The notes below the pieces were generated by a model, which did no database searches, was not told the DNA's origin, and saw only the letters and a list, made by a program, of their open reading frames with translations. Position numbers and translations under genes: made by a program. A stretch of DNA of 64,000 nt from positions 43,315 through 107,314 of IMG/VR virus record IMGVR_UViG_3300021400_001327, one strand, 5' to 3'. This document shows, piece after piece, positions 3,603 through 52,233 of the stretch (position 1 is the stretch's first letter; each line of letters begins with the position of its first letter). This stretch comes from a virus (lineage: Duplodnaviria; Caudoviricetes).

Positions 3603-4838
3603 TTAGTCATCGTCTTCTTCCTCCGCGTACTCGTTGTGATCGAGCGTCACATTATATATACACTCCACTGTCCGACGGTTCGACGTGATGACCACCGTCT
3701 GCTCCACCGGCGCGAACAGACGCTTGTTGAAAGCGTAGCTGTCGGCGCCAGACAGGCATCCACACTGAATCACTCTCGTCTTTCCGATAGTGTTATAAGC
3801 GCTGTGGTGCATATGCCCCATCAGGATAATATCGGGGATGCGTCCGTAAATCTGCGTCATGTTTCCGGCGACCTTATCCATGCTGTCGAGGTCACCATGC
3901 ACGATGACCACGTCACGTCCGGCCTTCGTTTTGAATAGCTGGTTATAATGGTACGATGCGTCACCGCTCGGCATAACCAGTATACGGCTGTTGCTCGCAG
4001 TCGCGGCCTCCAGATAAAACGGGATCAGGTCATCAAGGTTGTCGCCAGGGATATTATCCTCTTTGTTCGAGTTGACCCTGCTGTGGTTGCCGCTGACGCT
4101 ATAGATGTAGATTTGCCCGAAGACGCCGCTCAGTTGATAGAGAAACCAGCTGATCTCGCGGCATACGAACTTGATTTGCTGGACAGTGTTCATGTTGTTC
4201 GTAGCGGTGATTGAGGCATGGATACTGCCACTGATCTGGTCGCCCAGAAGGCAGAGATGACATACACCAATATGATGCCGCTCCTGTATCTCCTTGAGAT
4301 TTTCGAGATACTCGGCCAGCCTGTTATGCAGTACACTGTGGTCATAGTCATTCATCAGATTGCTGGCCGTAACGCCGACATGCATGTCAGACAGACACAC
4401 GATAGCTTCACAGTCCGTGTCGCCCTTATGTTTCGGCTCCATGACCTTTACAGGACACTGCTCTACCAGCACGTCTCTGAGCGCGTCCATGAATGACTCC
4501 TTGCGGGCTTCCTCGCGAAGCTGGCGGTTGAACTGGTTGCGCTCGTCTCTGAGGCGGGTGCGCTCCTTATACAGTTCCTGTTTTGCCTCGCGAAGCTCCC
4601 GGACGAGCTCATCCTCCCCTTTGTTGGCGAAGACCTCGTTATAGTATGTCATCGCCTGAGTATATGGTTTCCGGTACGTTGCGCTGTCGAAATGACAGCC
4701 AAGCTGGTCGTTCAGGACATCTGTGAGCTCATCCCATGTCATGTCGAGTTCGCCGTGGTCCTTCATGGTGGCCAGCCTGTAGATATATTGTATCCGGCTT
4801 TCCTCATCTCTTTTCTTCAATTCCTGTTCCAATCTCAT
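3603..4838 (-). CDS. Calcineurin-like metallophosphoesterase with N-terminal coiled coil
   Basis: Motifs SDMH, LGD, GNH, HGD, GHMH. Confidence 0.85.
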   Translation of the reverse strand: MRLEQELKKRDEESRIQYIYRLATMKDHGELDMTWDELTDVLNDQLGCHFDSATYRKPYTQAMTYYNEVFANKGEDELVRELREAKQELYKERTRLRDERNQFNRQLREEARKESFMDALRDVLVEQCPVKVMEPKHKGDTDCEAIVCLSDMHVGVTASNLMNDYDHSVLHNRLAEYLENLKEIQERHHIGVCHLCLLGDQISGSIHASITATNNMNTVQQIKFVCREISWFLYQLSGVFGQIYIYSVSGNHSRVNSNKEDNIPGDNLDDLIPFYLEAATASNSRILVMPSGDASYHYNQLFKTKAGRDVVIVHGDLDSMDKVAGNMTQIYGRIPDIILMGHMHHSAYNTIGKTRVIQCGCLSGADSYAFNKRLFAPVEQTVVITSNRRTVECIYNVTLDHNEYAEEEDDD

Positions 4839-5589
4839 CGCTCCTCGAATATATATCATCAGCCCACTCGGCGACCTGGCCGCGCCGCGACTTGGTCAAC
4901 TGTGTATAATCACACAGGTCTGGCCGCTTCATAAAATGCTCTATATATGGCACAAAACCGCTGAGACGTTTGTTTGGCAGGTCGATTTGCTCGCGATGGC
5001 CGATGACCACCACAAGGCTATTGTCGAACACACGCGTCAGCAAAAGCCGCATTTCGTCTACCGTGGCGTTCTGCGCCTCGTCGATGATAACGATGGCCCT
5101 GTTGTCCGGGTCATTACTGCCGAGGTTGCACCCACGCATATACATCTGCCCACTACAATAGATAGGGTTGTCGATGGCTGTCTCTTCGTCGATGTCGCCA
5201 TAGCATATCTTCCTGTCGGGGCTGAGACCGGCAGTGATAAGCGCTTGCTCCACAGGGATGAAGTACGGCTTCGTCTTCTCCAGAAGACCCGGCCTGTATC
5301 CTACCTTTGATTCAGCAGAGCCGCCCATTGCGCGGATGTAATAGGTTTTGTTGGCAAGTCCGTAGTCCATAGCGATCACAGCCAGCAGTACTGCCAGCGT
5401 AGTCTTACCAGACCCGCTCTTGCCTTCAACAAAAACCACCTTCCCGTTTTTGGCGCCCCGCCACATCAGATCAACATAGTGGCGCTGCTCATCGTTCATG
5501 CTCTTTGCGAGCCCGAAGAATGGTGAGTCCTCGAGCGTTTCCGGCGGTGCCTCGCGTTCTGCGGGACGTGTACTCTTTCTTGTTGCCAA
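4804..5589 (-). CDS. phoH: PhoH-family ATPase
   Basis: GKSGSGKT, YMRG, IIDEAQN, LLTR...GHREQID. Confidence 0.9.
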   Translation of the reverse strand: MATRKSTRPAEREAPPETLEDSPFFGLAKSMNDEQRHYVDLMWRGAKNGKVVFVEGKSGSGKTTLAVLLAVIAMDYGLANKTYYIRAMGGSAESKVGYRPGLLEKTKPYFIPVEQALITAGLSPDRKICYGDIDEETAIDNPIYCSGQMYMRGCNLGSNDPDNRAIVIIDEAQNATVDEMRLLLTRVFDNSLVVVIGHREQIDLPNKRLSGFVPYIEHFMKRPDLCDYTQLTKSRRGQVAEWADDIYSRSDEIGTGIEEKR

Positions 5590-5616
5590 GCGGTCTCCAC
5601 ATCCTTTCGTAAAAGA

Positions 5617-6291
5617 TCAGAAGATAATATCTTCAACCTTTGTGATGATGGCATCAGCAATACCGCAGTCAACGGCCTCAGCAGAACTCATATATGTATC
5701 TGTCTGCATAAACCGTTCCACATTAACACGCGGTATCTTCGTGCGGTCAACAACCATATCAACCATATCGACGACCTGCATATCCCACTGCTTCATGCTG
5801 TTATGCGCAGACCTGTGGTCCATACTCATGCCATCCACAGACCCGCGATGCATCATGAACCAGCTATGCTTCGTCGCGAAGCGCTTGTGGCAGGCCAGAT
5901 AGATAAAGAACGCCGCGCTGTAAGCGATACCGAAGTTGATACCATAGACAGGCGTGGTGCTCATTTGAATGGCGTCATACAACTGCATACAGGCATCGAG
6001 CTCTCCGCCGTGTGAGTTGATCATGATACAGATAGGCAGGCGCTTGTCCACCGGCGTTTCTGTGTCATCACGATTCCACTGGATGATGCGCCGCACGATT
6101 TTCGTGGCGCCCTCTACATCGATATCGTCGTCGATCCACACGATACGGTTCATGTCGTCCTGCATGGCTTGCAACTCATCAGGTCCCGGCACTGAGCCAA
6201 GATTGCCATCGCAGTCACAATCGTCGAGTACGATCCCCATCTCTTTGGCTTGTTCCTCAGTGATATACTGAATGTTTTCCTCACTTTTCAT
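5617..6291 (-). CDS. clpP: ClpP-like serine protease
   Basis: INSHGG, AYSAA (Ser), FMMH (His), TDTYMS (Asp). Confidence 0.9.
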   Translation of the reverse strand: MKSEENIQYITEEQAKEMGIVLDDCDCDGNLGSVPGPDELQAMQDDMNRIVWIDDDIDVEGATKIVRRIIQWNRDDTETPVDKRLPICIMINSHGGELDACMQLYDAIQMSTTPVYGINFGIAYSAAFFIYLACHKRFATKHSWFMMHRGSVDGMSMDHRSAHNSMKQWDMQVVDMVDMVVDRTKIPRVNVERFMQTDTYMSSAEAVDCGIADAIITKVEDIIF

Positions 6292-6568: not shown

Positions 6569-7198
6569 TCAGCGAGAACCAAGACGCAGAGCCGCATACA
6601 GCGCCTCGATGTCGTTGTCGATAAGTTCGTGCTCTCCTGTATTTTTATATGGCACAAGCAGTTTGAAGCATGACACAGAGCGGCGATATTTTGAGAAACG
6701 ACCAGCGGCCTTGCCTTTGTCTGTATCTACCTTTGCGATGTATTGCCACTCGCACAGGCGGCGGATATTGCGCCCGCGAACGTTGGCGCCTTTCATATCC
6801 AGCCAATTAGCCAGTTGCTCGGTTGACGCCTGAAACACCCCACGCCTGTCAGCGAACGCCTTTGCATTGCACAACAGGGCAAGCGCCACCTTCCTGTCTG
6901 TCTCTGTCGGCGCATGGTCCACGATATTCTGGGCGTCTGTCTCTGATACGAACACACGACAGCCACTGTGAAGCTCGGCTTCATTGATGTACGCAGCGTT
7001 GACGCACTGAAGGAGATTCAGCCCGTTCGTCTTGTGGCCATTCAGCCAATCACGAATAAAGGAGACGGCGTCCACTGGGGACTCGCCGTCTGCCTTCATC
7101 AGCTTGGATATCATATAACATGCCCGATACAGCCGACTCTGCTCCTCTGGCGGCTGTCCAGACATATACTTCTTAACTTCCGCGACCTCGTCAATCAT
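6569..7198 (-). CDS. Hypothetical protein downstream of RNAP, possible C-terminal winged HTH
   Basis: Open frame overlapping the RNAP stop; STEQLANWLDM...IRRLCEWQYI. Confidence 0.6.
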   Translation of the reverse strand: MIDEVAEVKKYMSGQPPEEQSRLYRACYMISKLMKADGESPVDAVSFIRDWLNGHKTNGLNLLQCVNAAYINEAELHSGCRVFVSETDAQNIVDHAPTETDRKVALALLCNAKAFADRRGVFQASTEQLANWLDMKGANVRGRNIRRLCEWQYIAKVDTDKGKAAGRFSKYRRSVSCFKLLVPYKNTGEHELIDNDIEALYAALRLGSR

Positions 7199-8180
7199 CG
7201 TCATCCTCCAGAAAATCAAAGATGCCCGGTTCAAGCGAGATGTCCATCTCGTCACTGTTCATCGGGACCATCGTGTAGTGACGCCCAAGATAGCTGAGCT
7301 CGCCATCATCATCGCGCTTTGGCACCATGATGCCAGCCTGCGGCTTCACGTTCGCCACGACACCGTCCGGCGCCACGACCCAAGGGAACTTCCTTCCGCG
7401 CCCTTTGTACACCTCATGCACGAGCTTTGTAGCAATATTGGCCAGCACCCGCTGGTCATCACAAACCTCAGCGCACAGCTTCCTATACTTCTGATACAGC
7501 GCGTCCCAGTCGGCGATGAAGGTAGTCGCCTCGTACTTCGTAAACTGCTGTCTGATCTCACGGTCAGAGTACCGCCTGACTTTCGTCTGGTATTTCTGGA
7601 GCTCGTTCGTCTCCTTGCAGAAGTCTTTGAATATCTTGGCCACCGCGTCGAACTGCTCTTGTGTGTAGGCAATGCTCTCGTCGCACATCACACTGTAGTC
7701 GAATCGCTCCTTCCGCCGCCACTTAAGCTCACGTTCCCATTTCTCGAGCTCACGGCAGAGGCGGTTCATATTGCTCGGCGCTTTTGAAAGTTCCATCCTT
7801 GCGTAGTACGGCGACCGATACCGCATAAAATACGGGAGGGGTCTGCCCCACTTACTGATTACGCGGGGCATTGAATAAAGGACGCCGGTTTTTGCGTAAT
7901 CGATGCTCTTCCCGACGATGGTACTGATAATGTCCTCATACTTCTCGTACCGCTCCTTCTGCTCATCTGTCTTCGGGCAGCGGTTCAGATATACACTCGC
8001 GTAGTTGCTGTACTCGCCAATCATATTCTTTGTTGTTCTGGTCAACAGCAGGACGCGACCGGCGGCGTCGTTGTTTTCCTTCAGGGCTGTGACCTTGTCT
8101 TCCATGTCGATAACGATAGTGGCGTTTTTGTCCGACCCGTCCAGGAAGAGCGGGTTGTCATTGACCAGTACGATATCACC
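7191..8180 (-). CDS. yonO: YonO-like RNA polymerase, exon 2
   Basis: Begins GDIVLV, completing DFDGD after splicing; IGEYSN and SIDYAKTG motifs of RdRP-like/YonO polymerases. Confidence 0.85.
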   Translation of the reverse strand, partial: GDIVLVNDNPLFLDGSDKNATIVIDMEDKVTALKENNDAAGRVLLLTRTTKNMIGEYSNYASVYLNRCPKTDEQKERYEKYEDIISTIVGKSIDYAKTGVLYSMPRVISKWGRPLPYFMRYRSPYYARMELSKAPSNMNRLCRELEKWERELKWRRKERFDYSVMCDESIAYTQEQFDAVAKIFKDFCKETNELQKYQTKVRRYSDREIRQQFTKYEATTFIADWDALYQKYRKLCAEVCDDQRVLANIATKLVHEVYKGRGRKFPWVVAPDGVVANVKPQAGIMVPKRDDDGELSYLGRHYTMVPMNSDEMDISLEPGIFDFLEDDDD

Positions 8181-8474
8181 CATAACCCACCGGCTTTCGC
8201 CGATGGCCGGACTATTTCTTTACCCATTGCTGGGCAGCTGGCACTTCGCCGACTGGAGTTTCACCAGCCAGCTACTCCTTACGGATAGTCTCTACACCTT
8301 CCTCTCACGAGGCTTGGCACGGCATTGTCCTGCGCTCATGCGTTTAGAGTTTTGCCGTTAGCCGACCCAAAAGTCCATATATTATTGATAGTGGTCATTT
8401 GGTCCGACACCCCAGTTGTCTGGGTTCACCAGCTTTTCATCATCACGTTACCGTGATGCGCGACAGTGTTACTT
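8181..8474 (-). ncRNA. Group I intron (294 nt, no ORF) in RNA polymerase gene
   Basis: Exon ends in U and CGAU pairs with intron GUCG; intron ends in G; P7 elements GAGACUA and AAGAAAUAGUCC; P3 GCUGG/CCAGC; removal restores A-D-F-D-G-D in frame. Confidence 0.9.
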
Positions 8475-10016
8475 ATCGAAATCCGCACCGTTCAATCTCT
8501 GCGCCACTAAGCTCTTTATGTTCAGCATAGCCACATTTGTCAGGTGGCCGCACCATTTCCAAATCTCGTCCGCGTTATTCACTCGGAGCACTACGTTCTC
8601 GCTCCGGCAGATGTGCGGGTTTCTTGTCACGACGTATTCCCCGTCGTACGTGATGCCCTTGCCTTTCGTCCAGAACTCATCGGCGCCGAGACAGCCGACA
8701 ACCGGAAGTCCGCCAATGTGTTCCGCAAACGCGATCAGGTCTGGGGCGATAAACTTGAAGCATGACTTAATGTACAGCTTACCGCACTTCATATCGTTGA
8801 TAAACTTGTCCAGCAGGGACATGATGTATTTGTTCACTGTTGGCTCTTTCATCATGGCGTCGTTCTTAGCAATCGCCGCCACGTACGCGTTCAGCGCGTT
8901 GCACTTCCCGTCTACGATACCAAGGAAGCATTTGGTAAAAAGCTCGTCTCCGCTAACGATGCGCTCAATCCACCTCGCAGACTGGTGGGCCAAGGTCTTG
9001 AAGTCCTCATAGGGCAGGTCCAGCGTCTGCAAGACCTGATAATTGCTCCGTGTGTACACCGGCTCTTCCTCTTCGGTGAAGTTGGCGCGGGCAATAGAAA
9101 TACAGTGTTCGTATTTATAGAACGCATCCCAGTACCGTTGCCAGTCCCTTGCGTCGCCGTACTGCTTGAAGTAGCCGAGCCCCTTGTACATGCTCTCGCT
9201 CAGGATGATCATCTCTTCGTGGATGCTGTGCTTCTGCCCCCACAGGTCCTCAATATACTCGACGCCGCGCTCCTCGTAGAAGCCCTCGTAGTCGAAGACG
9301 TGAAGACACCCTTTAATGAACGGCTGCCTGTAGATGACGGTGGTGATGGGCGTTGTGCTGTTGGTCAGCGTCTCCATCCAGTGAGCCACGTTCTTATGCA
9401 TGATGCCAACACCATCGAACGCGTTGATCTCGTAGTCGAACACGCCCTCGGCGATGTCCTTCTGCGTAAAGTTGAACTCTTTGCCTTCAGAGTTCGTGTA
9501 CGTGGTCACCTTATCAACAAGGTGTTTGATGCGCTGGTTCTTGATGGTCGTCATCATGTCCGGCACAACGATCATCTTCGGCACATAGTTCTCGATGCAG
9601 TGTGCTGATGAAAGCGCGAGCCCGCGATAGGCGTACCACTTGCTCAGTACCGTCTTGTCGATTTTCAGCCCCATCGTCACGCGCTCTGTGAGCTCGTCCG
9701 CTATCGAGGCATCGACCATCGACAGTACGCCCTGGCGCACCATAGACGCGCTGCGCTCGCCGAGCACGAACGGTCGCCCGCGTATCTTGATACCCTCCAG
9801 CGCAAGCCGCGACAGTGTAACAGCGATATCCTTGTGGTAGTTAATGTCCACGAAGATGATATACGGGTTGTACTTCGACGTCACGCCGGTGATGCGCCTG
9901 ATCTGTCTCAGGTACTGGCTGTCGGCCTGCTTGATGAAATACTTCTTCTCTTCCTCTGGCGAGATATCCAGACTGAAATCTGCCTTTACGATCGTACGCA
10001 GATCAATCGAGCGCAC
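8475..10016 (-). CDS. yonO: YonO-like single-subunit DNA-dependent RNA polymerase, exon 1
   Basis: RSASMVR, FDGVG, RQPFIKG, TRNPH, QRLNGADFD; true start may be ATA at 10040. Confidence 0.85.
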
Positions 10017-35659: not shown

Positions 35660-35957
35660 TAACGGGATGCCTGACAGGGAGAAGGTTATCAGGGCCGTTG
35701 AAACTTGTTTTGATAGCTGGATTGATAAGCACCGGAACATAGGTCTTGATTTGCATGAAGTCGAGCGGTTGAAACGAGAAGCGCTGGAGATGCTGAAAGA
35801 GCAGGAAGCTGTTGAACCAAAACTTGTCGATGTAAACACATGGACTTGTGGTGAATGTGGTGCGTTGATCGGTTGGGAGGAATTTGCACAGTCAGGATTG
35901 GAACTGGTCAAGTACAAGTTCTGCACGGAATGCGGAAGGGCGGTGAAATGGGGATGA
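35652..35957 (+). CDS. Zn-ribbon protein
   Basis: WTCGEC...KFCTECGRAVKW; paralogue of 36460-36780. Confidence 0.7.
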   Translation: MTDNGMPDREKVIRAVETCFDSWIDKHRNIGLDLHEVERLKREALEMLKEQEAVEPKLVDVNTWTCGECGALIGWEEFAQSGLELVKYKFCTECGRAVKWG

Positions 35958-36931
35958 CATATTCTTCGATTGAAAAAATCCGACCGAAAGCGAGTATCCA
36001 ATGGGACAATGGCAACGACGGGCGGGATGGGCGTTATTATATCGAATATCGCTGCCCCGTGTGCGGTCGAAGGATATTCTATTATGGGCGCGATAACGCA
36101 TGTGATCAGTGCGGAACATTTTACGATTGGGGAAAGCGTGAACCAGTCATCGAAATAACGAGGTGCGTGAAATGGGATGAGTGACCAATATAATACAGAC
36201 GGGATAATGGTTTTCCAAAAGGCAAGTCAAAGACCTGTAACAGATAACGCCTTTGAAAGCATTGAACGCGCAATAGCGTTTGACGTGAGAGACTGGTCTC
36301 AAGACCGGAGAAGTGCATGGATCTATGCCATCGTGTTCGGCTGGGAGTACGAGGACGCCTGGGATGAAGTGGCTAAGAAATTCGGCTGGGATGAAGAAGA
36401 CCGTAAAAGAGCACGCTCACTGCATGTGCAATGGGAAATGGCAAAGGCGGTGAAGTGGGATGCCTGACCGGGAAAGGGTCATTTACGATCTTGAACGATG
36501 TACGTGCCACGTTCCGGACGCTTGCCGGGATTGCTCAAAATACGCCAGCGGAACCGTGATGAAATGCATGGAAAGCCTGATGATGGACGCGTTGGAACTG
36601 CTGAAAGAGCAAGAACCAGTTAAACCAACAGTCAACGTTGATACTTGGATTTGTTCCGAATGCGGTCATACATTAGAAAGTCAAGAACTTATTGATGACA
36701 ATGAGAATCCTCAGGTGCTTATCCATGAGCAATATAATTATTGCCCGAACTGCGGAAAGGCGGTGAAGTGGGATGAGTGAATACACAGGAGGGCCGCTTG
36801 ACAGATTAGCCGATTTGTTCATGAGAGCACTGAGAACGGATGACCCTCAAACGAAAGCCAATTTAATCAATGAATGGAACGAAGAAATCAAGTTTATCAA
36901 TTCTGTATTAAAAGGATGGTGAAGTGTGATG
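35936..36931 (+). repeat. Five copies of junction motif AAGGCGGTGAAGTGGGATG
   Basis: Near 35936, 36161, 36443, 36756, 36911; each overlaps a gene end and the next ATG. Confidence 0.75.
36460..36780 (+). CDS. Zn-ribbon protein
   Basis: WICSEC...YCPNCGKAVKW. Confidence 0.7.
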   Translation: MPDRERVIYDLERCTCHVPDACRDCSKYASGTVMKCMESLMMDALELLKEQEPVKPTVNVDTWICSECGHTLESQELIDDNENPQVLIHEQYNYCPNCGKAVKWDE

Positions 36932-48219: not shown

Positions 48220-49392
48220 ATGCCAAACTATGTGATGTACCACTGTCATAGCGATTACAGCCTGCTCGACAGTTGTACAAAGTTCAGTGATTACATCGAA
48301 CTGGCGAAACGCGATGGCATGACGGCGATTGGGTCCAGCGAACACGGACTTCCGAGAGGCAACATCAGCAAGATGATCGCCTGCCAGGAAGCTGGGCTGA
48401 AATTCCTCTATGGTGTTGAGGTGTATCTGACCAGGACGTTGAGTGGTGAAAAGGTCAGAGACAATTACCACACCGTGCTGATTGCCAAGAACCACGAGGG
48501 CATGAAGGAAATCAACCTCGCGGTCAAGCTGGCCTCGCGTGACGACCACTTCTACTACCAGCCGAGGATGACATTTGATGAACTGATTCGGCTTTCAAAA
48601 AACGTGATTGTTATATCAGCCTGTGTCGCTTCGCCGCTAAGCAAGCTGCATGTCAGTGATGCGGACTACCAAAGACTGCTGAACCGCTACGATTATCTGG
48701 AGATACAGCACCATGACCACCCAATGCAGATAGCGTACAACCAACATCTGTACCAACTGTCGCTGGAGACAGGCAAGCCGCTCATCGCCGGGACGGACAC
48801 ACACTCCTCTACACCGTATAAGGCCGAGTGCCGCGACCTGCTGATGCTGGCCAAGGGCAAGTCGTTTCCCGATGAGGAGACCTTCGACCTGACCTATAAG
48901 ACCTATGATGAATTAGTGGCCGCATATGAGAAACAGGGCGCCCTCCCCCGTGACGTGTATCTTCAGGCGATTGAGAACACGAACGTGATGGCGGCGAGCG
49001 TGGAAGAGTTTACCATCGACCGCAGTAACAAGTATCCGATATCGTATGGCTCTGCCGAAGAGGACGCAAGGCGGTACAAAGAACTGACATGGCAGATGTT
49101 CGAGGACAAGCTGAAGAAAGGTGTAATACCGAGGAGCCAGGAAGATGCGTTCAGGAAGGCGATAGAAGAGGAGCTCGCCACATTTGAAAAGCTGGGCATG
49201 TGCGGCTTTATGCTGTCTGAAAGCGAGCTCATTCAGTGGTGCCATGCTAACGGCATTCCAACCGGCCCAGCTCGTGGTTCTGTCGGCGGTTCGCGTGTGG
49301 CGTATGTTACGGATATCATCGACATGAACCCTGAGGACTATGGCACGATATTCAGCAGGTTTTGTAACGAAAATCGTATAGAAATTGGCGAT
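48220..49392 (+). CDS. dnaE: DNA polymerase III alpha, exon 1
   Basis: PHP HCHSDYSLLD, GPARGSVGGS, FSRF..EIGD. Confidence 0.92.
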
Positions 49393-50235
49393 CAACCATA
49401 CGGTCGCCCTTTGCAGTAATGCATCGAAAACAAGCTGGTGAACCAACATACGTTGGGTGTGCGGCGTTTGCCGTGCTAACGGTGAAAGCTAAACCGCAAG
49501 GCATGCTAATACCGTGGTAAGCCTTTAGGAAAGGAGGTAACCATATGATTGACTATAGTTTGCTGTATAGCGGAGAGGAATTGAAAGAAATCAATGGGTT
49601 TGAACATTACTATGTTTCAAATTATGGCCGTGTGTTTTCTGACGGAGAATACAGAAAGAGTGGCCGTCGTGACTTTCATGAGCTGAAGGGCAAGTACGGG
49701 AAGAATCCAGCGAAGTACGGTAATGTCATGCTCTCGAAGGATGGAAAGTATTACACGTTTATGATTCACCGACTTGTAGCTCTACACTTTGTGCCCGGAT
49801 ATTTCGATGGCGCTGTCACCAATCATATCGACGGCAACAACAGAAACAATCGAGCCGATAATCTTGAATGGATAACTCAAAAAGAAAATATCCACAAGTC
49901 CTATGTCACATCAGGAGTCAATCAGCTTCGTCATTATGATGAGTGGGCTTTGTTTGACCCTGAGGGCAACGAACTCGGAGTATTCAAAGGTATGACGGCC
50001 ATACACAGATTTATCGAGAAGAATCATCTTCCGACGTATGGATCTTCGTTAGAAAAGTATAAGGTCAGTCGTGGTTACCGTGTTGAAAAAGTTCCTAAGG
50101 AAACTGTAACGACTATCCAAATCGGAGTAGCGTGACGGTGAAATTCCGTCGTGCGAAGTGCCAGCCTCCGCAATAATGCGGATGAAGATATAGTCTACTC
50201 CCCTAATAAATATCGGGAAACCGAGGGTATAAAGG
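49393..50235 (+). ncRNA. Group I intron (843 nt) in dnaE carrying an HNH gene
   Basis: P1 GGCGAU/GUCGCC with U.G pair; ACGACUA and AAGAUAUAGUC; terminal G; splicing yields EIGD-IDTD. Confidence 0.9.
49545..50135 (+). CDS. NUMOD4-HNH homing endonuclease
   Basis: YYVSNYGRV, HRLVA, NHIDGNNRNN..NLEW. Confidence 0.9.
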   Translation: MIDYSLLYSGEELKEINGFEHYYVSNYGRVFSDGEYRKSGRRDFHELKGKYGKNPAKYGNVMLSKDGKYYTFMIHRLVALHFVPGYFDGAVTNHIDGNNRNNRADNLEWITQKENIHKSYVTSGVNQLRHYDEWALFDPEGNELGVFKGMTAIHRFIEKNHLPTYGSSLEKYKVSRGYRVEKVPKETVTTIQIGVA

Positions 50236-52233
50236 ATAGATACTGATCTTATTGACACCGATAGGCCAAGAGTGTTCCAACATATCATCCAGAAGTTCGG
50301 CGAACGCAAGACCGCCCGTGTTTCGGCTTATGGCACGGTCGCCGATAAAGGCGCGATTGACGATATCTGCCGTGGCCTGAAGACGCGCTGGGTGACAGAT
50401 AACAGAAAAGACCTAAACCCCAAGACATTCAAAGATGAGATGATTCCAGAGTGCCCGTTCACACTAAAAGCGGCGGACAAAATCAAGGACGAGTATATGA
50501 GCAATCCGACAGCCGCCAGACAGAAATATCCCGATGTCTTCTACTACTTCGATGGCACAGTCAACACCATCGTCAGCCAGTCCATTCACGCAGCAGGCAT
50601 CGTTATTTCTCCAGTAACATTGGACGATAACTACGGCACGTTCTACAACTCTGGTGAGCACTGCCTCCTGCTCGATATGGAAGAGGCTCACGACGTAGGT
50701 ATGTGCAAGTACGACATGCTGATTCTAACAAACGTTAAAATCATTGCGGACACATATAAGGCGCTGGGCAAACCGTTCCCCAAAACGCACGAAATTGACT
50801 TCAATGATCAGGCTGTATGGAAAGATATGAGGCGAAGCCCCTACGGCATCTTTCAAATGGAGAGCTCGCTGGGATACAACTCCCTGCGCAAGATGAAACC
50901 GACCAGCGTCAAAGAGATGGCGTTGTTGACTGCATCAATTCGTCCGTCCGGCGCGTCGTACAGGGATGACGTATTCGCCCGTAAGGTACACGCCAACCCC
51001 ACCAAGGAGATGGACGAACTCTTCAAAGACAACTTTGGCTTCTGCGTCTATCAGGAAGACATCCTGCGTGCTCTGATCGAGCTTTGCGGCTTCAGCGGCA
51101 GTCAAGCAGACACAGTGCGGCGGGATATCGCAAAGAAGAATCCAGAGAAGGTCGCCAAGGATATTGTGCTGATCAAGCAGGGGTATATCGAACGCTCCAA
51201 TAAACCAAGGGAAGAGGCTGAACGCGATGTGGCAGACCTGCTTCAGGTCATTCAGGACGCCAGTGGATACTCTTTTAATAGCTCGCATGCAGTCGCATAT
51301 TCCATTGTGGGCTTCATGTGCGCCTATTGCCGCCACTACCACCCGCTTGAGTTCTGCACGGCCTACCTCAACGGCGCCAAGTCGCAGGAAGACATCTACC
51401 ACGGAACCGTCCTCGCCCAGCTTTACGGCATCAACATCCAGCCGCCGACCTTCGGCCACTCCGGCGACGAGTACACATTCGACAGAGCGACCAACACCAT
51501 TTATCAGGGGCTCGACTCGGTCAAAGATATGGAGTCTGGCGTTGGCCAACGCATGGCCGAGCTTGAGAAGACCGCGCCAACAGACTCTGCGGTCGACCTG
51601 TTCCGTTATCTCAAGAGTAACGGTATCGGCAACAAACAGCTTGAGATACTCATAGACATCGGGTTTTTTGCCAATTTCGGCAATGTCAGGAAGTTGCAGA
51701 AAATCCTTGAAAACGCTATCGCTCTCAAGTGGGGAGATATGACATGGCTCGCGCACGAAAAACTCCCGAGGTTTAGCTTTGAAGCCGGTGCGCTCTCCGC
51801 CTATGCAGAGCGCAGGACAGAGAAGAACTGGAAGGTCAAAGACGGCGCTGGCCTGTTACGGTATATGGGGCGCATCGTCGACGATCAGAACGTACAGGAC
51901 GAACCGTTGTCCGAGAAGTTTAGCAAGTGGATGAACTACCTTGGTTATATCCCGGCGATGGGCGCGGACTTCAGGGCAAAGATGTATGTCTCAACCGACC
52001 CGAGAGAACTCAGGTCCAAGAAGACGGGTAAGGTATGGGCGCACTGCATATCGGCAATTTCGCTGAGAACTGCCGAAATGCATGAATGGCTGATACCGAG
52101 CGGCTTCTACATCAACAAGCTTAAGAAGGGAGACGTGATCCAGGTCGTCGGCGGGCGCGAAGGATTCAGCGTTGGTGATTATAACGGTATGCCGACATAT
52201 CGCCTGTATAACTACAAGGTAACCAATGTTTAA
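50236..52233 (+). CDS. dnaE: DNA polymerase III alpha, exon 2
   Basis: IDTD, HAAG, KYDML, GIFQME, YQE, YSFNSSHAVAY. Confidence 0.92.
   Translation: MDTDLIDTDRPRVFQHIIQKFGERKTARVSAYGTVADKGAIDDICRGLKTRWVTDNRKDLNPKTFKDEMIPECPFTLKAADKIKDEYMSNPTAARQKYPDVFYYFDGTVNTIVSQSIHAAGIVISPVTLDDNYGTFYNSGEHCLLLDMEEAHDVGMCKYDMLILTNVKIIADTYKALGKPFPKTHEIDFNDQAVWKDMRRSPYGIFQMESSLGYNSLRKMKPTSVKEMALLTASIRPSGASYRDDVFARKVHANPTKEMDELFKDNFGFCVYQEDILRALIELCGFSGSQADTVRRDIAKKNPEKVAKDIVLIKQGYIERSNKPREEAERDVADLLQVIQDASGYSFNSSHAVAYSIVGFMCAYCRHYHPLEFCTAYLNGAKSQEDIYHGTVLAQLYGINIQPPTFGHSGDEYTFDRATNTIYQGLDSVKDMESGVGQRMAELEKTAPTDSAVDLFRYLKSNGIGNKQLEILIDIGFFANFGNVRKLQKILENAIALKWGDMTWLAHEKLPRFSFEAGALSAYAERRTEKNWKVKDGAGLLRYMGRIVDDQNVQDEPLSEKFSKWMNYLGYIPAMGADFRAKMYVSTDPRELRSKKTGKVWAHCISAISLRTAEMHEWLIPSGFYINKLKKGDVIQVVGGREGFSVGDYNGMPTYRLYNYKVTNV

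Follow-up and report, generated by a model that had tools for sequence, protein, structure and literature searches.

We identified a group I intron of the phage IA type in the catalytic DFD|GD motif (the bar marks the insertion point) of a single-chain RNA polymerase gene in the window, the whole 64,000-nt stretch of viral DNA analysed here. The record from which the window is taken, a complete gut phage genome of 107,314 bp, has terminal repeats of 107 bp; the window covers its right-hand 64 kb, and positions refer to the window unless another record is named. The intron (8181-8474, minus strand, 294 nt) has no ORF, and its sequence predicts that it is removed from the transcript by splicing. 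We consider it highly probable that this ORF-less IA-type intron in a YonO-type polymerase gene is a selfish element in a homing cycle; we infer its self-splicing, its mode of mobility and the late role of the polymerase.

The gene is read on the minus strand as two ORFs. The first (8469-10016) ends with AAC GGT GCG GAT TTC GAT|AAG TAA, which encodes NGADFDK followed by a stop, and the second (7191-8183) starts with ATG GGT GAT ATC GTA, encoding (M)GDIV. At the 3' junction the minus strand reads ...GGGTTATG|GGT GAT ATC GTA. Excision of 8181-8474 fuses ORF 8475-10016 with ORF 7191-8180, both exons being in phase 0. Exon 1 (8475-10016, minus strand) comprises 514 codons, ends in NGADFD with T8475 as its last base, and is defined by the ORF list, tblastn, PHROGs and a colinear alignment. 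Exon 2 (7191-8180, minus strand) comprises 329 codons and a stop, begins with GDIVLVNDN, and is defined by the ORF list and the colinear alignment. The joined frame is 843 aa long and reads ...RLNGADFDGDIVLVNDN..., in which NGADFD|GD is restored and DFDGD occupies residues 512-516; the predicted exon-exon RNA junction is ...GCGGATTTCGAT|GGTGATATCGTA.... An earlier note on this DNA had given the ORF ends, a 294-nt excision between U and G, and an ADFDGD join, and all of these were correct to the base.

The nearest cultured relative is Thomasclavelia phage TR-TP1, whose gp3 is an uninterrupted protein of 864 aa annotated as an RNA-dependent RNA polymerase. The spliced product aligned with gp3 over its full length at 39% identity (E 0), and the alignment was gapless at the junction (RLNGADFDGDIVLV in the spliced product versus RLNGCDFDGDLLFV in TR-TP1 gp3). 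The NGADFDGD loop is present only in the spliced product. Since neither ORF alone contains the three-Asp loop, a functional enzyme must depend on splicing, as had been proposed.

The host gene is a YonO/QDE-1-type single-chain RNA polymerase with two double-psi beta-barrels. In tblastn searches, exon 1 matched SPbeta yonO (E 3e-15) and TR-TP1 (E 5e-137); it also matched phrog_8308 and phrog_4291, and exon 2 had no match in PHROGs. The spliced protein matched SPbeta YonO by blastp with an E value of 3e-23 and an identity of only about 25%. When the window exons were scanned singly against Pfam, none scored above threshold. The family PF05183 (RdRP) was recognised in the intronless 86% relative P0005 with 53.5 bits (cut-off 23.8), and this match spans the insertion site. 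We also examined an AlphaFold (AF2) model of P0005, a close relative and not the window's spliced product itself (pLDDT 89.4, pTM 0.85). Its best Foldseek matches were plant RDR2 and fungal QDE-1 (E 5e-22 to 1e-20), followed by the phage single-chain RNA polymerases P74 gp62 and P32 gp64 (E about 1e-7) and P23-45 gp96, and then by cellular beta-prime subunits. A sequence search of the PDB with the family profile gave no match, and it was the structure search that recognised the polymerase fold. Across 30 homologues, the D, D, G and D columns of the DxDGD loop are invariant. These matches, together with the position of the break, agree with the former description of the insert as splitting DFD|GD in a YonO-like two-barrel RNA polymerase.

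In SPbeta, the late operon is transcribed by YonO, which is a DNA-dependent RNA polymerase (PMC5467207). By analogy, the polymerase of the window may synthesise RNA on DNA and have a role in late transcription, and its gene position is helpful here: the gene stands first in a long run of minus-strand genes, among them one for a ClpP-type head protease.

The intron follows T8475 (U in the RNA), begins with AAG UAA and ends with G8181, the omega G. Its boundaries and class are indicated by the Rfam model RF00028, by covariation and by an empty site in the related locus L009. The RF00028 match (8188-8484, minus strand) covers the full model length with 33.7 bits, at E 1.1e-6 in the window scan and E 1.1e-7 in the whole-genome search, a score below the Rfam gathering score of 50. 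At the gathering threshold, Rfam returned no match anywhere in the window, and the intron emerges only at an E-value threshold. Most other insertions in this gene family fall short of the cut-off as well: among 15 family loci scanned, a single RF00028 match passed it (L025, 104.6 bits, a further match at 5998-6272 of that locus). The low score of the window intron probably reflects weak coverage of phage IA-type introns by the model. A match to the group II model RF02003 (14.6 bits, E 1.1) was rejected as noise, because the insert lacks a domain V and, at 294 nt, is much too short for such an intron. A part of the intron's core (about 8255-8330) is 84% identical to stretches within two introns, one splitting the DNA polymerase gene of Aeromonas phage PT2 and the other the gene for the large terminase of Klebsiella phage ZX22; both of these introns carry endonuclease ORFs. 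In the window intron, no sense-strand ORF of at least 40 aa was found within 8181-8474, in line with the claim that it has no endonuclease of its own.

To this intron we aligned three copies of its lineage from the same site in other loci, L008 (259 nt), L088 (263 nt) and L089 (257 nt). For the 78 proposed pairs, 98.7% of the cells in the four copies are paired. Two-sided (compensatory) changes were found in 16 of the 78 pairs; column shuffles gave 5.0 +/- 1.7, with 0 of 500 as high, and sliding the partners by 1-3 columns left just 0-2 compensatory pairs. The compensatory changes are located in P2, the long hairpin, the P5 arm, P6a, P7.2, P8 and P9. P1, P3, P4 and P7 are invariant in the four copies, so that their support comes from conservation and the model alignment.

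The core of the predicted structure is a P3-P7 pseudoknot with conserved R and S (AAGAUAUAGUC-like) elements, accompanied by P8 and P9; all helices lie on the minus strand. The 5' strand of P3, GCUGGU (8428-8433), pairs with 8237-8242, and both strands were found in the Rfam alignment and the MFE fold and are invariant in the four copies. The 5' strand of P7, GACUA (8286-8290), belongs to the R element (..AGACUA) and pairs with UAGUC (8210-8214), which lies inside the S element AAAGAAAUAGUCC; both strands are in the Rfam alignment and the MFE fold, and the 5' strand is also seen in the four copies. P2 (8441-8458) is a hairpin with a GUAA loop and four of its seven pairs compensatory. Between P3 and P4 there are two extra hairpins (8411-8424 and 8361-8408), and three of the six basal pairs of the second are compensatory; the distal part of this 8361-8408 peripheral hairpin contains a 35-nt extension specific to the window copy. 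Such a pair of hairpins is absent from the textbook group I scheme. Helices that would correspond to a P4-P5-P6 domain (8296-8358) are 100% paired and mostly invariant in the four copies: a putative P4 at 8353-8358/8319-8324, a P5 arm at 8328-8348 and P6/P6a at 8296-8318. P7.1 (8276-8285) and P7.2 (8248-8272, four of eight pairs compensatory) together span 8248-8285, between P7 and the 3' strand of P3, and are extra stems typical of subgroup IA. P8 (8221-8236, GCAA loop) has two compensatory pairs, and P9 (8187-8206, GAAA loop) has one, along with three one-sided changes that keep all pairs. The RF00028 alignment and the four-copy comparison bear out the earlier assignment as a group I intron with P1, P3 and P7, and the covariance-model check that had been suggested gave the full-length match described above.

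At the 5' splice site, P1 and the internal guide sequence (8461-8478) form 5 bp that are invariant in the four copies. Exon bases CGAU (8478-8475) and A8474 pair with UGUCG (8465-8461), which places the wobble U8475·G8464 at the splice site. With the ligated exons CGAU|GGUG, the guide CACUGUCG (8468-8461) could form one unbroken helix made up of P1 and P10. The possible P10, between CAC(U) at 8468-8465 and the exon-2 start GGUG, is read from the sequence.

These features suggest how the gene would be expressed. The whole gene would be transcribed as one pre-mRNA, in which the guide would pair with the exon-1 end CGAU and place the U·G wobble at the splice site, where exogenous guanosine would attack. 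The guide would then align the exon-2 start GGUG, the terminal G8181 would serve exon ligation, and the spliced mRNA would encode the 843-aa polymerase. On unspliced RNA, ribosomes would halt two codons into the intron, because it opens with AAG UAA.

In the same genome, other candidate introns were observed. The DNA polymerase III alpha gene (48220-52233, plus strand) is split by a putative intron at about 49420-50271. Part 1 of this gene contains PHP and positions 6-103 of DNA_pol3_alpha, and part 2 contains positions 117-259 of DNA_pol3_alpha and the finger and HHH domains. The insert carries an HNH_3/NUMOD4 endonuclease ORF (49545-50135) and a weak RF00028 match (50015-50217). Its 5' end and 3' core resemble those of the RNA polymerase intron, and thus the two introns look related. 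Outside the window, there are two RF00028 candidates on the minus strand (22.5 and 25 bits), at G000:C1:12578-12812 and at about 35755-36140. One of the two lies between ORFs of 1,611 and 3,385 aa, and the other adjoins an ORF of 219 aa. The phage may carry four group I introns.

Relatives of the window phage have occupied, empty and ORF-bearing forms of the same intron site. In the metagenomic loci L009 and L010 (84-86% amino acid identity) the site is empty, and the empty site of L009 (...GACTTCGAT|GGTGATATCG... / ...GCAGACTTCGAT|GGTGATATCGCA...) is almost base-for-base the window exon ends joined. A homologous intron in L008 matched RF00028 with 42.4 bits. At the window's site, L090 (exon identity 72%) carries a 1,021-nt intron, of which the first 65 nt and the last about 145 nt are 79-82% identical to the window intron. 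The L090 intron contains a 246-aa ORF with its own AGGAGG, placed in the terminal loop of the P5 arm; this ORF matched no Pfam family and gave only weak matches to PHROGs of unknown function. Because the homologous L090 intron carries this ORF, sequence comparison indicates that the window intron is the ORF-less form of a mobile lineage. The occurrence of ORF-bearing, ORF-less and empty alleles among related phages fits the homing cycle, an established scheme that we apply to this family.

We also examined the motif in 80 IMG/VR loci, whose counts are not independent because many of the contigs come from one metagenome. The motif is uninterrupted in 45 of these loci. Site A, NGAD|[FY]DGD, holds an insert in 28 of the 80, and site B, NGAD[FY]D|GD, the site of the window, in seven. 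All inserts in the 80 loci are in phase 0, follow a T and end with a G. At a third point, site C (RLN|GAD), L091/L092 have a 1,349-nt insert with a homing endonuclease of phrog_12131, and the site-C intron of L091 matched RF00028 with 81.4 bits. The homologues fall into three length classes, of about 515-545 aa, about 600-640 aa and 820-860 aa. The motif inserts belong to several lineages without mutual blastn similarity, yet all share a UAGUC element that lies 20-50 nt before the 3' end. HNH_3 endonucleases, some with NUMOD4 and some lacking it, are encoded by the long inserts; L043, L024, L040 and L054 have site-A/B introns with HNH proteins. The ends of P0076, P0078 and P0096 ("RLNRS..."/"RLNRA...") were considered as a further insertion site and rejected; we read them as frameshifted NGADYDGD, probably assembly errors or frameshifted copies. 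A sub-threshold match to the HEARO RNA (RF02033, 74.2 bits, cut-off 83) was seen in a relative at L049:59-303, where it lies upstream of the polymerase gene by about 3.7 kb.

Inserts at site B were likewise found in two public records. In Clostridium phage c-st (L095), the sequence NGMDMD|GDAV is interrupted by a 317-nt T...G insert (AP008983.1, 165561-165877), which has R- and S-like elements and gave nothing against RF00028 at E<=0.1. The genes CST179/178/177 of this phage are annotated as a YonO homologue "N-ter only", a hypothetical ORF and then "C-ter only". Exon 2 of c-st runs straight into CST178, the annotated hypothetical protein, which has an internal-codon start. MT835481 holds a 948-nt insert at site B. 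The other site-B introns (the L019 group, the L043 group and c-st) gave at most short weak blastn matches to the window intron, with no detectable similarity for c-st; as they are not clearly homologous to it, we do not claim a single origin. The earlier note knew of no such insertion in a phage RNA polymerase, and proposed a survey of YonO homologues. The site turns out not to be unusual, being occupied in seven of the 80 relatives, in MT835481 and in c-st, a GenBank record of 2005, and the neighbouring NGAD|FDGD is filled in 28 more of the 80.

A second motif, GK[SA]ID[YF]AKTG, has at least three insertion points in relatives (NG|K, within the Ile codon, and ID|Y), with inserts of 282-1,227 nt in L008, L010, L017, L019, L023, L037, L042, L045, L066 and L088. 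In window exon 2 this motif (GKSIDYAKTG) is intact and unoccupied. Bacillus phage vB_BsuS-Goe11 (MT601272.1, L100, locus 4456-5745) has its yonO annotated as yonO_1 and yonO_2, separated by a 300-aa ORF, and the break, ...NNFTID|FAKT, is at this second hot spot; SPbeta itself is uninterrupted. Taken together, sequence comparison across the family indicates that introns have entered the Mg-binding loop of YonO-family polymerases at several sites, which makes the loop a hot spot; this is the modestly new point of this work.

This distribution bears on whether the intron has been recruited as a regulator, with the efficiency of splicing timing the active polymerase and hence late transcription, a timing switch also put forward in the earlier note. 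There would be no enzyme without splicing, YonO-type enzymes drive the late genes of SPbeta, and at least three further candidate introns lie in late or replication genes of this genome, including Pol III alpha. However, L009 and L010 lack the intron, a homologous intron in L090 carries an ORF, unrelated introns occupy neighbouring positions in other relatives, several of them with HNH homing endonucleases, and no sensing element was seen in the window intron. The patchy presence and the unrelated endonuclease-bearing neighbours argue for selfish invasion of a conserved target rather than a conserved regulatory device. The timing switch is thus unsupported, and we regard regulation by this intron as very unlikely.

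It is more improbable still that the two ORFs encode separate subunits of a split polymerase, with the 294 nt as a structured spacer and exon 2 translated from the ATG at 8183-8181. The last three bases of the intron do form an AUG that shares the exon-2 frame, with a GGUGG shortly before it, and multisubunit RNA polymerases of phages are often in pieces (PMC7824862). However, this GGUGG is base-paired within P9, and the last codon before exon 2 in the L090 intron is TCG, so no start codon is available there. Separate subunits would also divide the Mg-binding triad between two chains, with two Asp on one and one Asp on the other, within a single loop between barrel strands. Moreover, the break point varies among relatives (N|GAD|FD|GD), close relatives are unsplit, and the spacer shows a group I core with covariation. 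Least credible of all is a decayed, non-splicing intron in a polymerase pseudogene: the missing endonuclease ORF, the Rfam score below threshold and the 35-nt insertion relative to the three closest homologues would fit it, but every helix has stayed paired through compensatory changes (98.7% of cells), the insertion is confined to the distal peripheral hairpin, both exons are intact and conserved, and the genome is complete with terminal repeats.

The reading we prefer, a selfish ORF-less intron whose homologue in a relative bears an ORF and whose site is empty in close relatives, would place this element among well-known ones. It is textbook knowledge that group I introns interrupt essential phage genes at catalytic motifs, and phage examples of the IA2 type include those of T4 td/nrdB/sunY, of the DNA polymerase genes of SPO1-family and T7-like phages, and of SPbeta bnrdE/bnrdF. 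Like these, the window intron is a small, putatively self-splicing ribozyme with P7.1/P7.2, inserted in phase at a highly conserved catalytic motif, with an in-frame stop just inside; endonuclease-bearing and ORF-less forms likewise exist, distributed patchily among close relatives. Unlike these, it has a YonO-type RNA polymerase as its host, two extra P3-P4 hairpins and a score below the Rfam cut-off. The window intron is therefore a selfish element of a familiar kind, well supported as such and lying at a hot spot.

Introns have been described in other phage RNA polymerases. In Pseudomonas phage PhiPA3, a group I intron with the HNH endonuclease gp210 lies in the gene of an RNA polymerase beta subunit, and this intron-borne endonuclease was shown to cut the intron-less polymerase gene of a rival phage (PMC11620839). 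A mobile intron was also reported in the RNA polymerase beta-subunit gene of 201phi2-1 (gp273/274) (PMC2919709). The window intron resembles them in its location in a phage two-barrel RNA polymerase gene, beside conserved catalytic Asp residues. The enzymes of PhiPA3 and 201phi2-1 are multisubunit, with the intron in the beta-like subunit, whereas the window has a single-chain enzyme, with the intron inside the beta-prime-like DxDGD loop and no endonuclease. The enzyme shares its single chain, two double-psi beta-barrels and DxDGD loop with SPbeta YonO and QDE-1/RDR2 (PF05183); its low identity to YonO sets it apart.

Split YonO homologues are also found in public phage records, namely the c-st homologue, broken exactly at the window's site, and Goe11 yonO, broken at the second hot spot; both records annotate separate ORFs rather than introns. 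The limited literature that we searched contained no report of an intron in a yonO-family gene or in a DxDGD loop. The papers searched make no mention of the c-st or Goe11 yonO splits, and those on SPbeta mention only the bnrdE/bnrdF introns (PMC8270828).

The finding leaves the understanding of the group I intron mechanism unchanged, and its consequences concern the polymerase family and its phages. Annotation splits the polymerase into two "hypothetical" ORFs, neither with the catalytic motif or a Pfam score at threshold. Such splitting by automated annotation suggests that YonO-type polymerases are under-called in gut phage genomes, including the long-standing c-st record. Expression of the enzyme requires the spliced sequence. 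More tentatively, and with far less confidence than in the homing cycle itself, the DNA of the Mg-binding loop could be a battleground between co-infecting gut phages, in which intron-borne HNH endonucleases, like gp210 of PhiPA3, would cut the intron-less genes of rivals and occupied sites would be immune. This doubtful but possible scenario would explain the persistence of ORF-less introns, because an occupied site would be immune to cutting, and it would also explain the three adjacent insertion points, the many unrelated lineages and the second crowded motif. The most conserved loop of two-barrel RNA polymerases is, on this evidence, a multi-site intron target across a phage family, and it offers a natural system for homing, intron immunity and phage competition.
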